A DNA stretch of 64,000 nt from Callorhinchus milii (lineage: Eukaryota). The notes beneath the pieces are model-generated. The model was not told the DNA's origin. It searched no databases and saw nothing but the letters and a program-made list of their open reading frames with translations. The stretch is from the NCBI RefSeq assembly GCF_018977255.1, contig NW_024704742.1:98396001-98460000 (forward strand), given 5' to 3'. Below, piece by piece: positions 17,478 through 49,020 of this stretch (the stretch's first letter is position 1; every line of letters begins with the position of its first letter). The position numbers were made by a program, and so were the translations under genes.

Positions 17478-18097
17478 AAACAAGGTGCATCTTTCCAGAG
17501 ACAGAGTTTGCATTCCATTCCAGACACACAGAAATTTCCATGCAGAATTGATATGCAAGTATGACTTGGTCTGGTGATAGGTTTCTGCCAAAAAATCCAG
17601 AATTAAACAAATGTGTTCATTGTCTGTTGAATTAAAATTTAGGATCTATGGAAGTGGAATGTGATTTTTTGGTAATATAATCAGCAAAAGGTGAAAACAA
17701 CAATACAATATAAATGTACATTTATATAGCACCTTTCACATCAGAAGGGCATTCCAAAGAACTTAACGGAATTAGCTGGGCACGCGAGTTGGTGGTGGGA
17801 GCCAAAGGGGTGGGGAGGAGAATGGTGGCTTAAAGTGCAGTCAAAGCAGATCTTGTGACAGCAAAGGATGGTTATAGTATCTTAAGGATCTGTGAAAAGC
17901 TAGGAGACCAAGATGATTAAGAATACCTTTCACCTGTGATATAATTGTAAATTCTATTTTCTAATTTAATTATGATATTGCAAAACATCTGTGCTTACTC
18001 ATATTCAAGATTGAAGTGGCATTATTGATATCAATTGGTGTGTTTCCGGGTTGAGTGTCAAAAAATTAACCTGATCTTTAATTGCCTTAAAATAAAA

Positions 18098-18690
18098 AAA
18101 TCATGCCTGTAAAATAAATTATATTTTATTATTGCTTGGAAATTGCATTAAAATAAAAACGACAAAGGGTCAATTAATATCTCATTTCAATGGAAAGCTA
18201 TTAGAATGAAATCACTGTCTATTCAGTCAATGATACAACACAGTTCAAGCAATGTTTGAAACACATGGGTTCAGATTATGTGACAACAATCAAATTGAAC
18301 ACATTAATTATCTAACGTAATTAAACTAAACGTGGCACATTATGTGATGTTCCTAAATACATATTCTGAATAGATTTTCGTTGTAGTTTTGTAAAAGTAC
18401 CTATTGGAAATCTAACCTAATTTTATAAATGTGCTGCCTTTAAAATAAAATCTAGAAATGTGGCAGCATTGTTGTGTGAGGCTGTTAATGTGATTAGAAA
18501 TGAAATCATCTTTACCATTAGGAAAGGGGAAGATATGTTCTGCAGGTACCTTTAATCACAAAATTTGACAGCAATCAATCATATTCTCATGGAAAGGTAA
18601 AATCAGTCTGGCTGAGTCTTACATAGACAGAAGCCCTTATCTATATCATGAAGCAATAATAAAATATAATTTATTTTACAGGCATGATTT
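18098..18690. repeat. Perfect 40-bp inverted repeat with 513-bp unique spacer
   Basis: 18098-18137 aaatcatgcctgtaaaataaattatattttattattgctt is the exact reverse complement of 18651-18690. Confidence 0.95.
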
Positions 18691-19744
18691 CCATTTTCAC
18701 TGACCACAAGGTCAAAGTCACAGTTATGTGAAATCACAAATGAAAGTCAGCAGTAATGAAAGGTTCTAATTTTTATTTGTATCTATAGTACTGTGCAACG
18801 AGCATACCAGACGCTAAAAAGTGTCTGTTGGAAAAAAATGGCAGCGTAAATTGTGCCTCATGCAGGAAAACACATCTTTTAATGGAAAGTGTATCATCTG
18901 CAAGAAATTACGGGCCTTGTTACAACTGCAGTTTCGTGACGGAATTTGGTATGTAACATCATGTAATTCATCTTAAAATCATTGCAATATTCTTTTGTGT
19001 GATGTAAAAGTACTGTATCTGCATCATTACCATGAAAGCTTTAATTGGCCATGATTAATGGGTGAGATTCAGACTTATGGTTAGTTTACTTGTTAAATTC
19101 CATAATTTTTGACTGTTTCAAGACAATTCCTGATTTAGGTCTGATATTTGTTGGTGTAAAAAGCATGAAAGGACCAGCATGGCAGATTGCAGGGAACACA
19201 TCTTTCCACAACATTTTGGTGATGAGATAAGATGCTGTATCAAATGCAACAATTATTATTATTATTAAGTAAAACTTTATTTGACATTTCCTAATCAGCA
19301 ACAAATATCTGTGTCTTAGATGAAGGTCAAGCCTGTGACATTTGGTACAGCATCTTTTACTAGATCTTCCTTTACCTAGAGAGCTTTTTGTACAAAGGTA
19401 TACATCCCACACATACTTCAGTTGCATTATGAAAGGGGGAGGCCTTGCCTAGAGAGGAAATACATGACATCCAATGGGTATTATTGATAAGGAAGTTATT
19501 GGTCTCAAGAATGTACTGCATTACTTATGAGATATTTAGTTCACTACACATTCACTGGGGCACTGCTGATGGCAGCACACGAGCCTGGCTCATTGGCAGG
19601 ACCTGGAAGGGCAGACCAGTTACTGGAGTTAGGGAGTCTTCCCCTCAGTTTCTGTTAACCCTGCAAGCCAAAGCCCTAACGGGTAGGATGGTCCTAGCTG
19701 GACAAGCAGCGGGAAAAGCTTGCATGACAGCAATATCAATGGCA

Positions 19745-29303: not shown

Positions 29304-30189
29304 AATTGGTTGAAATATCTAAGGCTCAATAAATGGGATTGTATTGCTCAAGTCATTTTTGTTTTACAAAATATCTGATAAATCTGCAAGTTACCCTTAT
29401 AAATTTGTATCCCTCCCATTCACTCTCTCTCATTCTCAAATACACACAGTCACACGTGCAAGTGCTTTGTTCTAATTTGTCCTCACTGAGCAGTTCCTAC
29501 AGATATCAACCTTGAGATTGGGAACTAAGTAAAGTATATAGGAGTCAAAGGAACGGCATCACATCCTACAAGTCTAGTGCAGAAAGTTTCTGCACCAATT
29601 TCCCAAGTTTCCATGTCACCCTAAATAGATATAGCTATCCAATCTGAATCTATCATTCATTGTGGTAAAAATACTAAACATAATAAAAAATATTTATTTG
29701 GATCATTTGTTCCATTTTCCTCTAGTCTAATACTCACAGATCCCCTAATTTGACTTTTGTTTAACTTTCAATTATCAATGCTTTCTGTTGCCTTCTATCT
29801 CCTAAAATAATTGGTCACAGCATTTAGGCTATTCATATCTTCTTTACACCTCATCACTCAGCCGCTGTAGTCGTTTACTTGCCAAATTCTGTCTTTTTTC
29901 TCAAGGGAATGTGCTTCCTCTTCTCATCCATTCATGTTATCTGAGCAAGTTAAATTTTTTTCCTGATCATTTTATATTGTAGTCTTGACTCCAACTAATC
30001 CCTTGAATGCTGTCAGTTCTGTGGAGATCCCTGTCCCTTGGGCCACTATCCTGTACATTTTCAGCTCACATATTGTGACATTGAAAAACTATTGATATTA
30101 CAGCAACAAAACTACTCAACAGTAGGATACCTTTATTACTGTAATATTATCCTAATTGCTAAAATAAAGTCACTTTTTCCTTTTATTGT

Positions 30190-30318
30190 TTTATTTCTTC
30201 CTTATTCTTCCTTGTCTCTTCATTTTTCTATGTTATTTCTTCCTTATTTTTCCTGTCTCATCATTTTTCGGTGTTATTTCTTCCTTATTCTTCCTTGTTT
30301 CATTATTTTTCTTTGTTT
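30190..30318. repeat. Minisatellite, about 3 copies of a ~42-bp pyrimidine-rich unit
   Basis: Unit approximately ttatttcttccttattcttccttgtctcatcatttttctgtg. Confidence 0.85.
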
Positions 30319-42210: not shown

Positions 42211-43263
42211 TGAATGTAACCTAATGCTTAAGCAGCAGGTTTGAATGAATAAGATCCAGGTGTTATTTTATGAAGGTCAGTCAGTCTCCAGAAGGAGGTT
42301 GCCCCAGCAAAGTGTCTCAGAGATGTGTTCAATCTTTTCATCATCCACTTGGGAATGTAGGGAATCCATACAATTAGTTTAGCATCTTAACATAAAGAAA
42401 TAATTTGCTTTTTATCACATTAAAGCACCTCAAAGCATTTTGAGCACTTACCTTGACTGATACAAAAGACTAAAGAAATGACTTGGAGGGTATATTCACT
42501 CCCCTGGAAAGAAAAGTAAGTGGTCCCACAATGTCCAATTCTACTCTTTAAGATGGCCCATGGATTATTGGCTAAGACTGAAACCTTGCTGTTATGCAGT
42601 CCCCCGATTTTCCCATTTTGTGACACAGTCACGTGAGTGCAATAATGCGACACATCACTTACAGCACAGAGTGCTGGAGGATCCTCCTTCCGATACGTTG
42701 TATTTCTAAGTGACCAGAGCAATGGACATTGTACATACATCTCATTAATTTATCTTAGTCATTTTCTAATTTACTAGCAGAACAACAATAAATTACATTC
42801 GTATAGTGCCTTTCACGTCAGGAAGTCCCAAGATGCTGGAACAGCTAACCCATCCCCAACTTGGGCTGCTAGCCATCTCTGTGAAGAGCTTTGAGGTGTC
42901 CTCACCATTTCAATGTCATTACATAATATAAAATTGTTGTTAATGCAGCACCACAATGTTCTTGTATTTTTTTCAAAAAGGCCACTCGGACAGGTGGCTC
43001 TCAGCTCTTATATTAGAGCTGAGGTGGCTCCATGAGGCAACCTGAATGTTTATCATGTGAGTCAATGATGCTTAACAATAACAACAACAATGACTTGCAT
43101 TTAAATAGCACCCCTCATGTAGGGTAATGTCCTAGAATGTTTATTGTAGGGGAGTTGACCGTAAGCATGATTGAAGAGGAAGGTCTTCAGGCACAACCTG
43201 CAGATGGGGAAGGAGGGGGCAAGGCGGAAGGAATGAAGGAGAGTGTTCCAGAGTTTTGGGGCG

Positions 43264-43599
43264 TAGTAATAATAATAATAATAATAATCCTTGCATTTGA
43301 TATAGCGCTTTTCACGTCGGGAGGACGTCCCAAAGCGCTTCACAGAACACACTGCAAAGTGAATTGACTGTATATTTCTGGGCGAACGCGGCAGCCAATT
43401 GCGCAAAGCAATGTCCCACAAACAGTTGTAGATTGAAAATGACCAATTTATTATTGTTTTTGGTTTCGGAGGGATTATTATTAGGCTCTGTGTGGAGTAA
43501 GGAAACTTGCCCAAGGTTTCGCCCTGACCTGCCGGGGATTGAACTCAGGTCTCTCACTTGCAAAGCGAGTGCTCTAACCACTGAGCTACAGGACTCCAC
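43264..43599 (-). mobile_element. SINE family A, young full-length copy
   Basis: Near-identical to 23134-23481. Confidence 0.95.
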
Positions 43600-43691
43600 A
43601 AGTGTGGGTGAAAGCACAGCCACTGAGGGCAAGAAGGACAAGCAGGAGGCCAGAGCCAGTTGGATTGGGGAGTAAGCAGGTCGGAGAGGTA

Positions 43692-43999
43692 GGAGTCCTG
43701 TAGCTCAGTGGTTAGAGCACTCGCCTCGCAAGCGAGAGACCTGGGTTTGATTCCTGGCAGGGCGAAATCTTGGGCAAGTTTCCTTACTCCGCACACCTGA
43801 TAATAATCCTTCAAGGAGAAAAAAACAATAATAAAATTGGTCACTTCAAATCCATGACTGTTTGTGGGACACTGCTCTTCGCAATTGGCTGCCGAGTTTC
43901 GCCCACAAATATACAGTCAACTCACTTAGCAGTGTATTCTGTGAAGCACTTTGAGACGTCTAGAAGATGTGAAACATGCTATATCAAATGCAAGGATTA
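43692..43999 (+). mobile_element. SINE family A, full length
   Basis: ggagtcctgtagctcagtggttagagcactcgcctcgcaagcgagagacctgggtttgattcc head and tail. Confidence 0.95.
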
Positions 44000-44678
44000 A
44001 GTGCCAGTGCATGAAGGGATTTGAAGATGAGCAGAGTACATAAAACCTTGCAAAAAAAACAAATGGCAATAATTACAGCAATTGCAAGACCATGCAATTT
44101 GAAATAAATATAATAAAGTGGATAACACACTGCAGTGTCAGAATTGCTTTTATTTTTATTATCTCAAGAGAAGTAAGAAGTAAAACAGGAGATAAAATCC
44201 TAACAAGACAGATTTGGCAAAACTGCTCTGAGGGAAGATATTTTTATGATTCATGAACTAAAATTGCAGGAAAGAAAAATCACCTGTTAACATAACATTT
44301 AGACAACGCTGACTCCACAGAGGTATAAAACTGCAAATCTCTTTTTAGGTTCCAATTATAAATTTACAATATTCTGAGATGCATAAAATGGCAAAAGTCT
44401 GCTTGAATGGCAAGATGCTTGCTAGACAACTCTTGTTTGGATCCAAATAAGTGGGTAGAAAGAAAGGTATGTGTATTAAAGGAAGTTAAAGGGGCCTGTA
44501 ATAATTTCTGCATTATAACTTTAATATATTAGCTGTCTCAATCCTGTTGTTAGGATAAACTGTGGGGAGGTTTGGATTTATACTCTTTCCTGGTTCCAAA
44601 TCATCTTTACCCGGCTCGAGCTAAACCTAGCTTCTGAATCAAGGCCAGGTTACTTTATACAACATAAAAGTGCACGAT

Positions 44679-45601
44679 GTGGCACAGCAATGATGTCTGA
44701 ATCACACCAATCTAATGTCGTGTAACTATGCAGAAGTCGCCAGGGGAGATCAGCATTAATGCAGCTCCATTGTCTTCGACAAGAGCACTTGGGAAACATT
44801 CCTACAGTCTGCCAGTGCATGTTGAGTCAATTCCCTCATGATCTTGTGCTTTTAGTTACCACTTGCTTCTGTATGGGCTCTATAGTGTTGTGACAGCTTT
44901 GGGAGGAGAGAAGCTTGCAGGAAGCTGGAACCAGCTTTTATTTGCTACACATCATTGTGCTTTGGCAGCCATGTGTTTAGAAGCATTTATTTGAGCTATA
45001 TGACGTAACATTTAATATCATCCATATATGAAAAATACCTTTAAAATATCTAACGTTTAAGACTTATTTTAAACATATTGAACATCTGGCCATGCTGATC
45101 TGGGCACTGCTGTGGTCTGAGTCAGTGTTATGTAACCGTGGACATTGGATGGATTTTATGGACAGCCTGTAAAGCTGGAGCTTGTAAAAATGTAATGACA
45201 TTTAAAATAATTTTGTGCACAGAATGCATACATTGCATAATGTAAATTTTTTTGGAGCACAGTACGTGGGTGTAAGTTATGTGTGCACATCTTTGCCATT
45301 GTTGACCAGCTGATTGGCACTTTCCTAGAAGATTCAGAAGCTATATTTTTCAGGAATGTCCATGCAACAACAACAAAATTACATTTGTAAAGCGCCTTTC
45401 ACGTCGGACCTGGTGCCGGCCGGAGCCTGCTGAGCGGAGGAAGCGGACAGGTTGATAGGGGGTCAGAAGGTCAGAGATGTAGGAGGGGGCAAGGTCGTGG
45501 AGGGCCTTGAAAATGAGGACGAGGATTTATTCTCCCCTGGCGACTTCTGGATAGTTATATGACATTAGATTGGTGTGAGTCAGCCGTCATTGCTCTACCA
45601 C
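44679..45601. repeat. 71-bp imperfect inverted repeat (63/71) with ~780-bp spacer
   Basis: 44679-44749 versus 45531-45601, aligned by hand without gaps. Confidence 0.92.
45365..45528 (-). mobile_element. Short internally deleted L2 insertion
   Basis: (caa)n tail and half of the stem-loop joined directly to an ORF2 segment homologous to 36240-36355. Confidence 0.8.
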
Positions 45602-45784
45602 ATGGTCCACATTCAATGCACCATTAACTGCTCTTGGTAGACAGTGCCACATAGCCACTGCTCTATTGGAGGGAAATTCTTCTCATCTCTTGTCCTACAA
45701 CAAAACTATTTTGCCTTGTTACTTGTCTCCCTGACAACATAAAAATAGCTTTTTGATCCTACCTCAGGACATGCCTGAGGTATT

Positions 45785-46380
45785 AGCCTAGCTCTGTTCA
45801 TAGCAATGTTGCTCTGAGTCAGAAGAACATGGTTCAAGCCACCTGGTGGAGATGCTGTCTAGTTAAACTAAGATAGAAATTATAAAATATCTCCTCTGCC
45901 TGTTCAGATGGTCATTAAACATAATAATAATAATAGTCCTTGCATTTGATATAGCGCTTTTCACGTCAGGAGGACGTCCCAAAGCGCTTCACAGAACACA
46001 CTGTAAAGTGAATTGACTGTATATTTATGGGCGAACGCGGCAGCCAATTGCGCACAGCAATGTCCCACAAACAGTCGTAGATTGCAAATGACCAATTTAA
46101 TTATTGTTTTTGTTTTTTGGAGGGATTATTATTAGGCGTGTGGAGTAAGGAAACTTCCCCAAGGTTTTGCCCTGCCTGGAATTGAACTCAGGTCTTTCAC
46201 TTGCAAAGCGAGTGCTCTAACCACTGAGCTATAGGACTCCACGGCATCCCACGGCACTATTCGAAAAATGAAGGGAATTTTTCCTGGTGTCTTGGCCAAC
46301 AGTCCCCCAAATAAATTAATCATTCACTTCATGACTGTGTAGAAACCTGCTGCGTTCAACTACAAATAGTCATTCACTCA
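45785..46380 (+). mobile_element. Deu-domain SINE interrupted by a family A SINE
   Basis: cctgttcagatggtcattaaa [insert] atcccacggcactattcgaaaaatgaagggaat. Confidence 0.8.
45921..46242 (-). mobile_element. SINE family A, young full-length copy
   Basis: Near-identical to 23134-23481. Confidence 0.95.
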
Positions 46381-48941
46381 GTGAATTTAATGTCAAGTGT
46401 AAAGTGATATACTCGTCAATTTGTCTAACAAAAGTTGTAAATTGAAATGAAACATTGTCCGTCTTTTCACTGTTAAACTAAAAATACCATAGCAAAAATC
46501 CTAACAATCCACCTTAAGAGCAAGTTACAAAAAAAACTGTGTTCTTCTCTAAAATTCCTTTTCTTGCGAATGTAACTTTCCTTTGTTAATAATCAAACTA
46601 GGAATTAACTTATTGGTATTAACCAGGACTTTTTTCAGTATGGTAGCCTGGAAATTACATTCTGGTAATGTGTACAGCCTAAAGTAAACTTTATGAGACA
46701 GCTAATTTTGAAAGAAAACAATTTGTGCGTTTATTGAAGTGAGAGGATGTATCTTTCTATTTTCAATTTGCTTGATTGGCTTGTTTACACAATTGAAAGC
46801 TTCTGTTCAGTGATTGTGGGTTGTTAATTTATAATTAATTAGGAAAACACCATAATAAAAGGTGCAAGGCCATGTCACCACAATCCACAATCGCTGAGAA
46901 AATGTCTTTGCAATCCAAACAGAAAATGAATGTCAATAAAATAATGGAGAACAAAGCCTGTTGCAGAACTCTGAAGTGCTTGAGGAAAGGAGTTGCAGAA
47001 AAAACCAACACAATCAAAGTATTAAACAATGTAACCCTTGAATGCAATAAAGATCCATTAATTTACAAATGCTGACAAAACCCATGGGTACCAAAGCAAC
47101 ATCTGTGTTATGCCTCCAGGTTTTCTCTTACATATGAAAATTTGTAATGTTGTTTTGTATAGATTTTAACTTATGTTGTACATTAATGGACTAAAGTCTA
47201 ATAAAGGCTGATTTATGTTTATATTTTAGAAGGTGTACAAAACACCCTAGTAGCACATCTCATATTGGGAATTTGTTGAAGTGTTTGTATGTTTCATGCA
47301 GTATTGAATAATTCAGTGCCTCACGACAGTAATTAGCTTTACATAGCGTTATTTTTTAATTTAAAAAAAAGTACAAGATGAAAGTTTATAATACAGATGT
47401 TACTAAGTTTAAAAAGAACAAGAGAAAAAGTAAGGTAAGTAAAGAATTACTGGTTAGAGATGCAAGTTTGTGTTTTGAAACTCTGGATATTGCAGGAGGG
47501 CAGTAAGACTGAGGTAGATAAAGAGATCTACAGTCTTGAATTTCTTGGAAAATATGTGCTTAAATATGAGACTTGGTAATGATCCTTACATTTTCTGTCA
47601 TTCTCCTGTATAGGAGAATGAAGCATTGTTCAAATGCACCAAAAGACAAACAAATGAACAGTGTAGTATTTGTGTTGACCATGACACAAGCAATGGTACC
47701 ACCCAACCACTGATTTCATCTTTCCTCTTGCCCTTTTGTTCTGAAGTAATCCAGAAGAAAACCCTTTGCTCATTGCATAGATAACTATGTAGAAGGCTGG
47801 AACAACCCAATATGATCCATGATCTGGATGGTCCCAAAGTGCAGTGAATAGAACGTGGCCTTTCATTGAGGTTTCACAAATGTAAAAACAACTCCCCATT
47901 GACAAATTTCCTGGTTAATTTGAATTGTACACAAATAACAGAAGTTTGTATTTACTTCTGCAGTAAAAATACATGTATCACACACCTCTTTATCAGCCAC
48001 TGAGTGGAAGCATTCTTATTTCTGATTCTGCAGGTGTTCAGTGCATGGCTAAGTGGGACAGTGAACTAAACCTAAGTTGTTGGGGAAATCCAGCTGCAGG
48101 AAAGAAATCTTTCTTGATTCTTATATCCTGCTGGAGTTTGGATGGGGAATTGATATATCCAGTGACTGAGAAGAGAAGTGACAGTACATCAGCTCCCTGA
48201 TACCTTGTAAATGTTTTTTCTGAGTGTATAGGAAGTTAAGCACATCAATGAGAATGTATTATGGGCTTGGGCTCTTCACCAAGGTTTCTGAAATACTGTG
48301 TAAAACATAGTTTGCCTCGAACAAATATCTTGTTGAATTTGAATTGTATATATAAATGAATCAATTGCATCTGGACCTGGGGAAGTTTCTACATACAGCT
48401 GTGATAACATTAAATGTATCACACACACCTCTTCAGAGTTCAATGAGTGGAATGAGGCCGTCTTAGGGAAAATAAATTGTTTGAGGCACTCATCCAGTTT
48501 CTCGAATGAGGTTATCTGGAGACTGGCCAAATAATGGGGATTAGGGCTGGGGAGGAATGGAGATCTTTGTAAAACTATACAAAATATAGTAAGGCACTTC
48601 ATTCTCTCAATGCACATGTATATGTTAATTCATTCTCCAATGACACTAAATGTGAACTTTTCATCGATGGGGGCAAGACTTCAGTGTATTGAATACGGGT
48701 GAGAGTGATCCACATACATCAGCAGTTGAGGAAAATAAATCTTGAAATAATCTTTGTAACTGTTACACAATCACAATCTGAGTGCAGTTATCTGAACTGC
48801 AAAGTATTCCAATGCATTACATAAAAAATAAAGAACAGGAGAAGGCCATTTAACCATGGAGCATGGTCCAACATAAAACGTTCCATGGCATTACATGCTG
48901 TCAGCAGGTCAAAGTCTCAAAATACTCTTAAACACAAACTG

Positions 48942-49020
48942 TTGAAGAACATTGTTAGATTTAGAAGATTTGAAGAATGTTGTTAGATTTAGAAGATTTG
49001 AAGAATGTTGTTAGATTTAG
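48942..49020. repeat. Tandem repeat, about 2.8 copies of 28 bp
   Basis: Unit gaagaatgttgttagatttagaagattt. Confidence 0.92.

Follow-up and report, generated by a model that had tools for sequence, protein, structure and literature searches.

Locally templated insertions in other systems

Several described kinds of insertion resemble an inverted repeat pair found in Callorhinchus milii, in a stretch of 64,000 nucleotides that was analyzed as a whole and is called the window here. The first are flank-templated inserts, for which a limit of 250 bp was used in the available text of two studies cited jointly (Schimmel et al., 2017, PMC5730883; Schimmel et al., 2021, PMC8355091). As described there, in-cis templated tandem duplications at protruding-end breaks combine a short duplicated target, a local insert between the two copies, and minimal microhomology, and the same combination is seen at this locus. 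In contrast to those duplications, the template here lies 513 bp away, beyond the 250-bp limit, and the enzyme can be named here only as a candidate. For inserts attributed to polymerase theta, the distance of the template from the junction peaks within 20 bp and most inserts are shorter than 10 bp, according to the available text (PMC11541566). The fold-back insertions among them share with this locus an inverted copy of flanking DNA that is itself retained, and 1–3 nt of microhomology at one junction. Unlike those inserts, the copy here is 40 bp long, its template is about 510 bp away, and the target is duplicated rather than deleted. A short template close to the junction is thus not what is found (40 bp at 513 bp), and against the 2–3 bp of microhomology associated with polymerase theta, the left junction has 1 nt (at most 3 with slippage) and the right junction has 0 unless the linker is itself templated.

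A perfect inverted repeat can also arise in one switch-and-return, without selection, as in the four-point model of short-range template switching (Loytynoja and Goldman, 2017, PMC5453318). The locus has both a reverse-complemented fragment and a return to the original strand. It differs from the events seen in the part of that study drawn on here in the order of the switches: the strand returns at a point before that of its departure, which leaves a direct duplication. Finally, templated sequence insertion polymorphisms (TSIPs, classes 1 and 2) consist of host sequence other than a transposon inserted at a new site, and their class 1 carries a target-site duplication (Onozawa and Aplan, 2016, PMC5110952); both features recur here. 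Class 1 TSIPs are described in the available text as LINE-1-mediated, whereas this locus has no poly(A) and no 5'-TTTT/A motif, and its template is local rather than distant.

Geometry and copy number of the repeat pair

Sequence comparison across the 64-kb window confirmed the exact pair that a sequence-only reading had reported: the arms match as reverse complements at 40/40 positions across a 513-nt spacer (Table 1). The match ends sharply and does not extend past 40 bases on either side. Chance alone would yield about 4e-15 such pairs at a distance of up to 1 kb in a sequence of 64 kb. The same reading had seen no further copy of the arm in the window, which also held, the next best match having 13 mismatches; an exact match to the arm was not found in metagenome contigs. 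Two longer perfect inverted matches (43 bp each) are present in the window, between interspersed SINE copies that lie 12–32 kb apart.

Table 1. Features of the repeat pair and of the duplicated target, in window coordinates
Feature	Position	Strand	Description
First target copy, 19 bp	18080..18098	+	Last base common to the left arm; 18/19 against 18141-18159
Left arm	18098..18137	+	Likely inserted copy; reverse complement of 18651-18690, 40/40
Linker GGA, 3 nt	18138..18140	+	Separates the left arm from the second target copy
Second target copy, 19 bp	18141..18159	+	Same orientation as the first copy
Spacer	18138..18650		513 nt, single-copy; no coding or RNA-family match
Right arm	18651..18690	+	Likely template, the original sequence; no flanking direct repeat

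The left arm alone is bracketed by a 19-bp direct repeat, identical at 18/19 positions with 42 bases between its copies, so that the elements run in the order target, inverted copy, 3-nt linker, target. A search for the 19-mer on both strands of the window, allowing up to 3 mismatches, returned these two sites only. Among 1500 randomly drawn 40-bp segments a score this high was reached once, by a segment in a tandem array; among AT-rich random segments, none of 131 scored as well. No such direct repeat was found at the right arm or around the whole unit. A search for a target duplication of the whole 593-bp unit, of 2–12 bp or longer, returned only a trivial AT inside the arms. The earlier statement that no target-site duplication is present therefore stands for the whole unit and fails for the left arm. 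That only one arm is bracketed gives the direction of copying, from the right arm as template to the left arm as insert; the left arm is thus likely a 42-bp insertion, a reverse copy of the right arm set within a duplicated target site. In the random control, the three highest scores came from degenerate short tandem arrays at 30181-30317 and 48942-49020.

The two junctions of the insert differ. At the left, 1 base is common to target and arm (up to 3 given slippage in an A-run), and at the right, microhomology is absent unless the linker itself is templated. The GGA linker is either untemplated or the product of a second short copying round. The 7-mer at 18137-18143 is the reverse complement of 18687-18693, at the end of the template, a coincidence expected at about 0.003 by composition for 40 places; however, the same 7-mer recurs at 18405 and 17534, within 2.8 kb, so the match is suggestive of a second templated round and may be fortuitous.

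The pair was followed into sequencing runs through assembled contigs. Of 24 runs listed, 7 contained the stretch and 4 were used (X1, X2, X3, and X5, with X4, X6, and X7 left out); these come from at most two studies, and X1 is possibly the source sample of the window. Their contigs were aligned to the region at 80% likeness. The contig evidence comprises 28 of the 166 pieces and 18 of the 91 loose ends listed, and contigs can lose rare alleles as well as rare or diverged copies. All four arm junctions were present in 4/4 runs, which excludes an assembly artifact. The contigs broke as expected of a true two-copy 40-mer in all four (the left flank running to 18127, the spacer covering 18108-18680, and the right flank starting at 18661), and the spacer was recovered each time as one 573-nt contig (18108-18680) at single-copy depth. 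Depth over the arms was 1.3–2.1 times that of single-copy sequence (measured on its own contig in X1, calculated from bins in X2, X3, and X5); in X1 the left arm formed a separate 40-nt contig at 2.1 times single-copy depth. The depth bin over the right arm was wholly accounted for by two unique contigs in 4/4 runs. In the three large runs, no paralogous contigs were seen on the arms or spacer at 80% likeness among those listed. At the same setting the SINE relic at 17786-17846, serving as positive control, drew dozens of paralogous contigs, so the contig test is able to detect repeat families.

The block from about 17850 to 19215 had near single-copy depth in 4/4 runs, in keeping with the sequence-only reading, which had placed the pair in about 1.3 kb free of a recognizable transposon. 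Its description of old, decayed repeats nearby was likewise borne out, with 23/211 aligned positions differing between the closest SINE relic and a young copy. Two of the pitfalls it had named, a young MITE and an assembly artifact, were tested, and neither was encountered, copy number being low and the junctions present in every run used. Across the four runs, 6 variant sites were listed over 1436 bases and 0 of these lay in the arms, an outcome expected with P = 0.71 for 80 arm bases. An allele without the insertion was not found among the contigs of the four runs. Contigs built from 31-mers cannot show the orientation of the spacer between 40-bp arms; in the window, the spacer contains the second target copy in direct orientation and hence has not been flipped relative to the event. 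A staggered-end inversion was rejected by argument, as it would leave an inverted rather than a direct target copy. Slight rises in depth at 18836-18883 and 19076-19123, seen at 80% likeness in two or three of the large runs, suggest that other parts of the genome contain short matches to these segments.

Origin of the left arm and competing explanations

We consider it probable that the left arm is a templated insertion made during repair of a staggered DNA break, with duplication of the target, and that it then likely spread by drift. The explanation sets out from what is observed, namely the geometry, the low copy number, and the presence in every run used. The site would have been opened by one nick in each strand, the two about 19 bases apart. 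A free 3' end would then have primed on inverted sequence about 510 bases away, either by folding back on its own strand or on the opposite strand, and copied 40 bases before disengaging. A/T microhomology of 1–3 bases could have mediated rejoining, and the target would have been duplicated as the overhangs were filled in, after which the insertion allele likely spread by drift. The leading candidate for the enzyme is polymerase theta-type end joining. Two marks that repair of this kind should leave are found at the locus: an insert identical to nearby DNA (40/40, inverted) and a duplicated target on both sides of it (18/19). The pair is real and two-copy, and probably a neutral scar of templated repair, a known kind of event. 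Among the origins that the sequence-only reading had offered, a recent template-switch event gained support, and its specifics can now be given as the left arm for the copy, the right arm for the template, and a duplicated target.

Several points count against break repair. The ancestral empty site was not seen among the four runs, the 19-mer is AT-rich, microhomology is missing from one junction if the linker is untemplated, and the template is farther away and the insert longer than in typical polymerase theta inserts. The order of the switches, with the return point before the departure point, also belongs to a class absent from the human-chimp short template switches in the available text of that survey (PMC5453318).

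The age of the duplication bears on the perfect identity of the arms. Across the duplicated bases of arm and target together there is 1 mismatch in 58, which gives P(0 of 40) = 0.50; a perfect 40-mer is therefore an outcome expected about half the time at this divergence, and selection is not needed to explain it. The sequence-only reading had held that zero mismatches stand out against the decayed repeats nearby. The much older SINEs are the wrong yardstick for such a comparison. Its proposal of arm-to-arm conversion is not needed either, since mismatches in the arms (0/40) and the target (1/19) do not differ (Fisher p = 0.32). At a substitution rate of about 1.07e-9 per site per year, taken from the available text of PMC5499810, the age would be about 8 million years (95% range 0.2–45); at 1.8e-10, near the slower rate given in the same text, it would be about 48 million years. 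An older local inverted pair at 44667-44749 and 45531-45613 (83 bp, 72/83 identical or 87%, 781 nt apart) was probably made by the same kind of event and has decayed as a neutral pair would; no flanking direct repeat was found at it.

A different trigger would be an abortive retrotransposition, in which a LINE or Penelope-type endonuclease made the staggered cut and local DNA or a local transcript, instead of the element, was then copied by the element's reverse transcriptase or by host repair. The clean target duplication at an AT-rich site would suit such a cut, and breaks made by L1 ORF2p are described, in the available text of PMC11702581, as leaving insertion sites with duplications, inversions, and templated insertions of genomic sequence. 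We nevertheless regard it as unlikely: the insert carries no poly(A), SINE tail, or element sequence, the L1 cut motif 5'-TTTT/A is unmatched at both target ends, and a long target duplication is present in 0/8 of the tRNA-headed SINE copies of the window, where the best are 7–11 nt with a mismatch. A literature search on target duplications of L2/CR1 gave no match. Were this origin the true one, the result would be the same neutral scar. A replication template switch without a break (four-point or FoSTeS-like) would involve a jump of about 510 bases, the copying of 40 bases, and a return 19 bases behind the point of departure. The geometry fits, and the four-point model formally yields inverted plus direct repeats (PMC5453318, available text). 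Such an origin is distinctly improbable, in that return-before-departure events numbered 0 among 794 human-chimp and 90 human-human events in that text, although its method starts from clusters of mutations in alignments and, as we infer, may under-call insertions. The pair could also be read as a non-autonomous DNA transposon (MITE) of a single-copy or extinct family, with the arms as terminal inverted repeats; the 593-bp length, the inverted termini, and the short interior devoid of coding capacity are all of that form. This reading is largely refuted, and we give it almost no weight. The unit has no target duplication of 2–12 bp around it, its arms and spacer drew no paralogous contigs at 80% likeness among those listed in the three large runs, where the SINE control drew dozens, and the direct repeat straddling the left arm would be left unexplained.

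The remaining alternative is that the pair has been kept by selection as a long-range RNA duplex, for folding of a transcript (RNA looping, ADAR recruitment, or the hiding of an acceptor-like site). The predicted stem has a free energy of -51.4 kcal/mol on either strand and a mean pair probability of 0.98 on the + strand, values that are automatic for any perfect 40-mer, and its z score was -6.6 against 20 shuffles. The 6 variant sites listed among the four runs all fall outside the arms, an acceptor-like site is present in the right arm, and the + strand has a mild excess of G over C that is compatible with transcription or replication bias. On the other side, the absence of variants is no more than expected for 80 bases (P = 0.71, as above), the identity is as perfect as the age predicts, Pfam gave no match for any of the 111 nearby ORFs and Rfam gave none, and mismatches that leave bases unpaired are accumulating in a comparable inverted pair of the window. 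Maintenance as a duplex is very improbable on these grounds. The earlier suggestion of selection for a pre-mRNA duplex thus found no support, the perfect identity being expected from the age of the duplicated target (P of about 0.5) and no host gene having been found in the Pfam searches. The acceptor-like site, at 18670-18681, is made up of a pyrimidine tract and an AG whose last base is 18681. It is 1 of 33 such sites in the window under a rule set after the site had been seen, and all three frames downstream of it stop within 15 codons. More doubtful still is the specific version in which the inserted arm would act as an antisense switch that has been kept, pairing with 18670-18681 and hiding it from a putative + strand non-coding or poison exon. 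If that were so, a single mutation would have silenced or tuned that exon in a host transcript, and if the pair masks a real splice acceptor, a splicing switch would have been born in one step. With templated repair as the preferred origin, pairing of the arms would still be predicted in any transcript of the region, as an incidental consequence.

Significance and genomic setting

As it stands, the locus matters little, being a further germline case, found in nature, of an inverted insertion with a local template. It is of value as a clean specimen, with junctions that are unusually readable and a target duplication that gives the direction of copying; the switch order is also one that the human-chimp survey of short template switches, in its available text, did not find (PMC5453318). 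If such insertions are common in the genome, new RNA stems would arise from them in countable numbers, and claims that a duplex is under selection could be judged against them as a neutral baseline.

The window is AT-rich, CpG-depleted, and dense in tRNA-headed SINEs and other repeat fragments. The tRNA-headed SINEs, compared by description rather than by consensus alignment, fit families described for the elephant shark in the available text of PMC5499810. Among 124 ORFs selected across the whole window (of 953, at least 30 aa, outside repeats), Pfam gave two matches below the cut-off, which were treated as chance. Between 15000 and 22400, 0/111 ORFs (at least 28 aa, outside repeats) matched, in a search that short or non-coding exons would escape. 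Rfam gave no match at E up to 1 in 17500-19500, and the only RNA-family matches in the window are 8 tRNA-like SINE heads.

Other arrangements of repeats were seen in the window. At 43149-43999, two young tRNA-headed SINEs lie head to head, with 33-bp perfect inverted matches (43565-43597 and 43692-43724) 94 nt apart, and the second of them shows 85% complementarity, over 207 nt, to a third SINE copy at 45921-46242. Faint direct similarity links 47902-48009 with 48321-48452, about 420–440 nt apart (72–86% over 28–71 bp, E 0.08–0.3), possibly the trace of an old local duplication. In unmasked sequence, 8001-32000 has a + strand skew of G over C of 0.07–0.11 with little skew of T over A, for which transcription, replication, or unmasked LINE relics may be the source. 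Directly to the right of the template arm, 18691-18960 is unique and relatively CpG-rich; the hexamers at its start bear what we take to be a resemblance to nuclear-receptor half-sites, and this segment could be a regulatory element.
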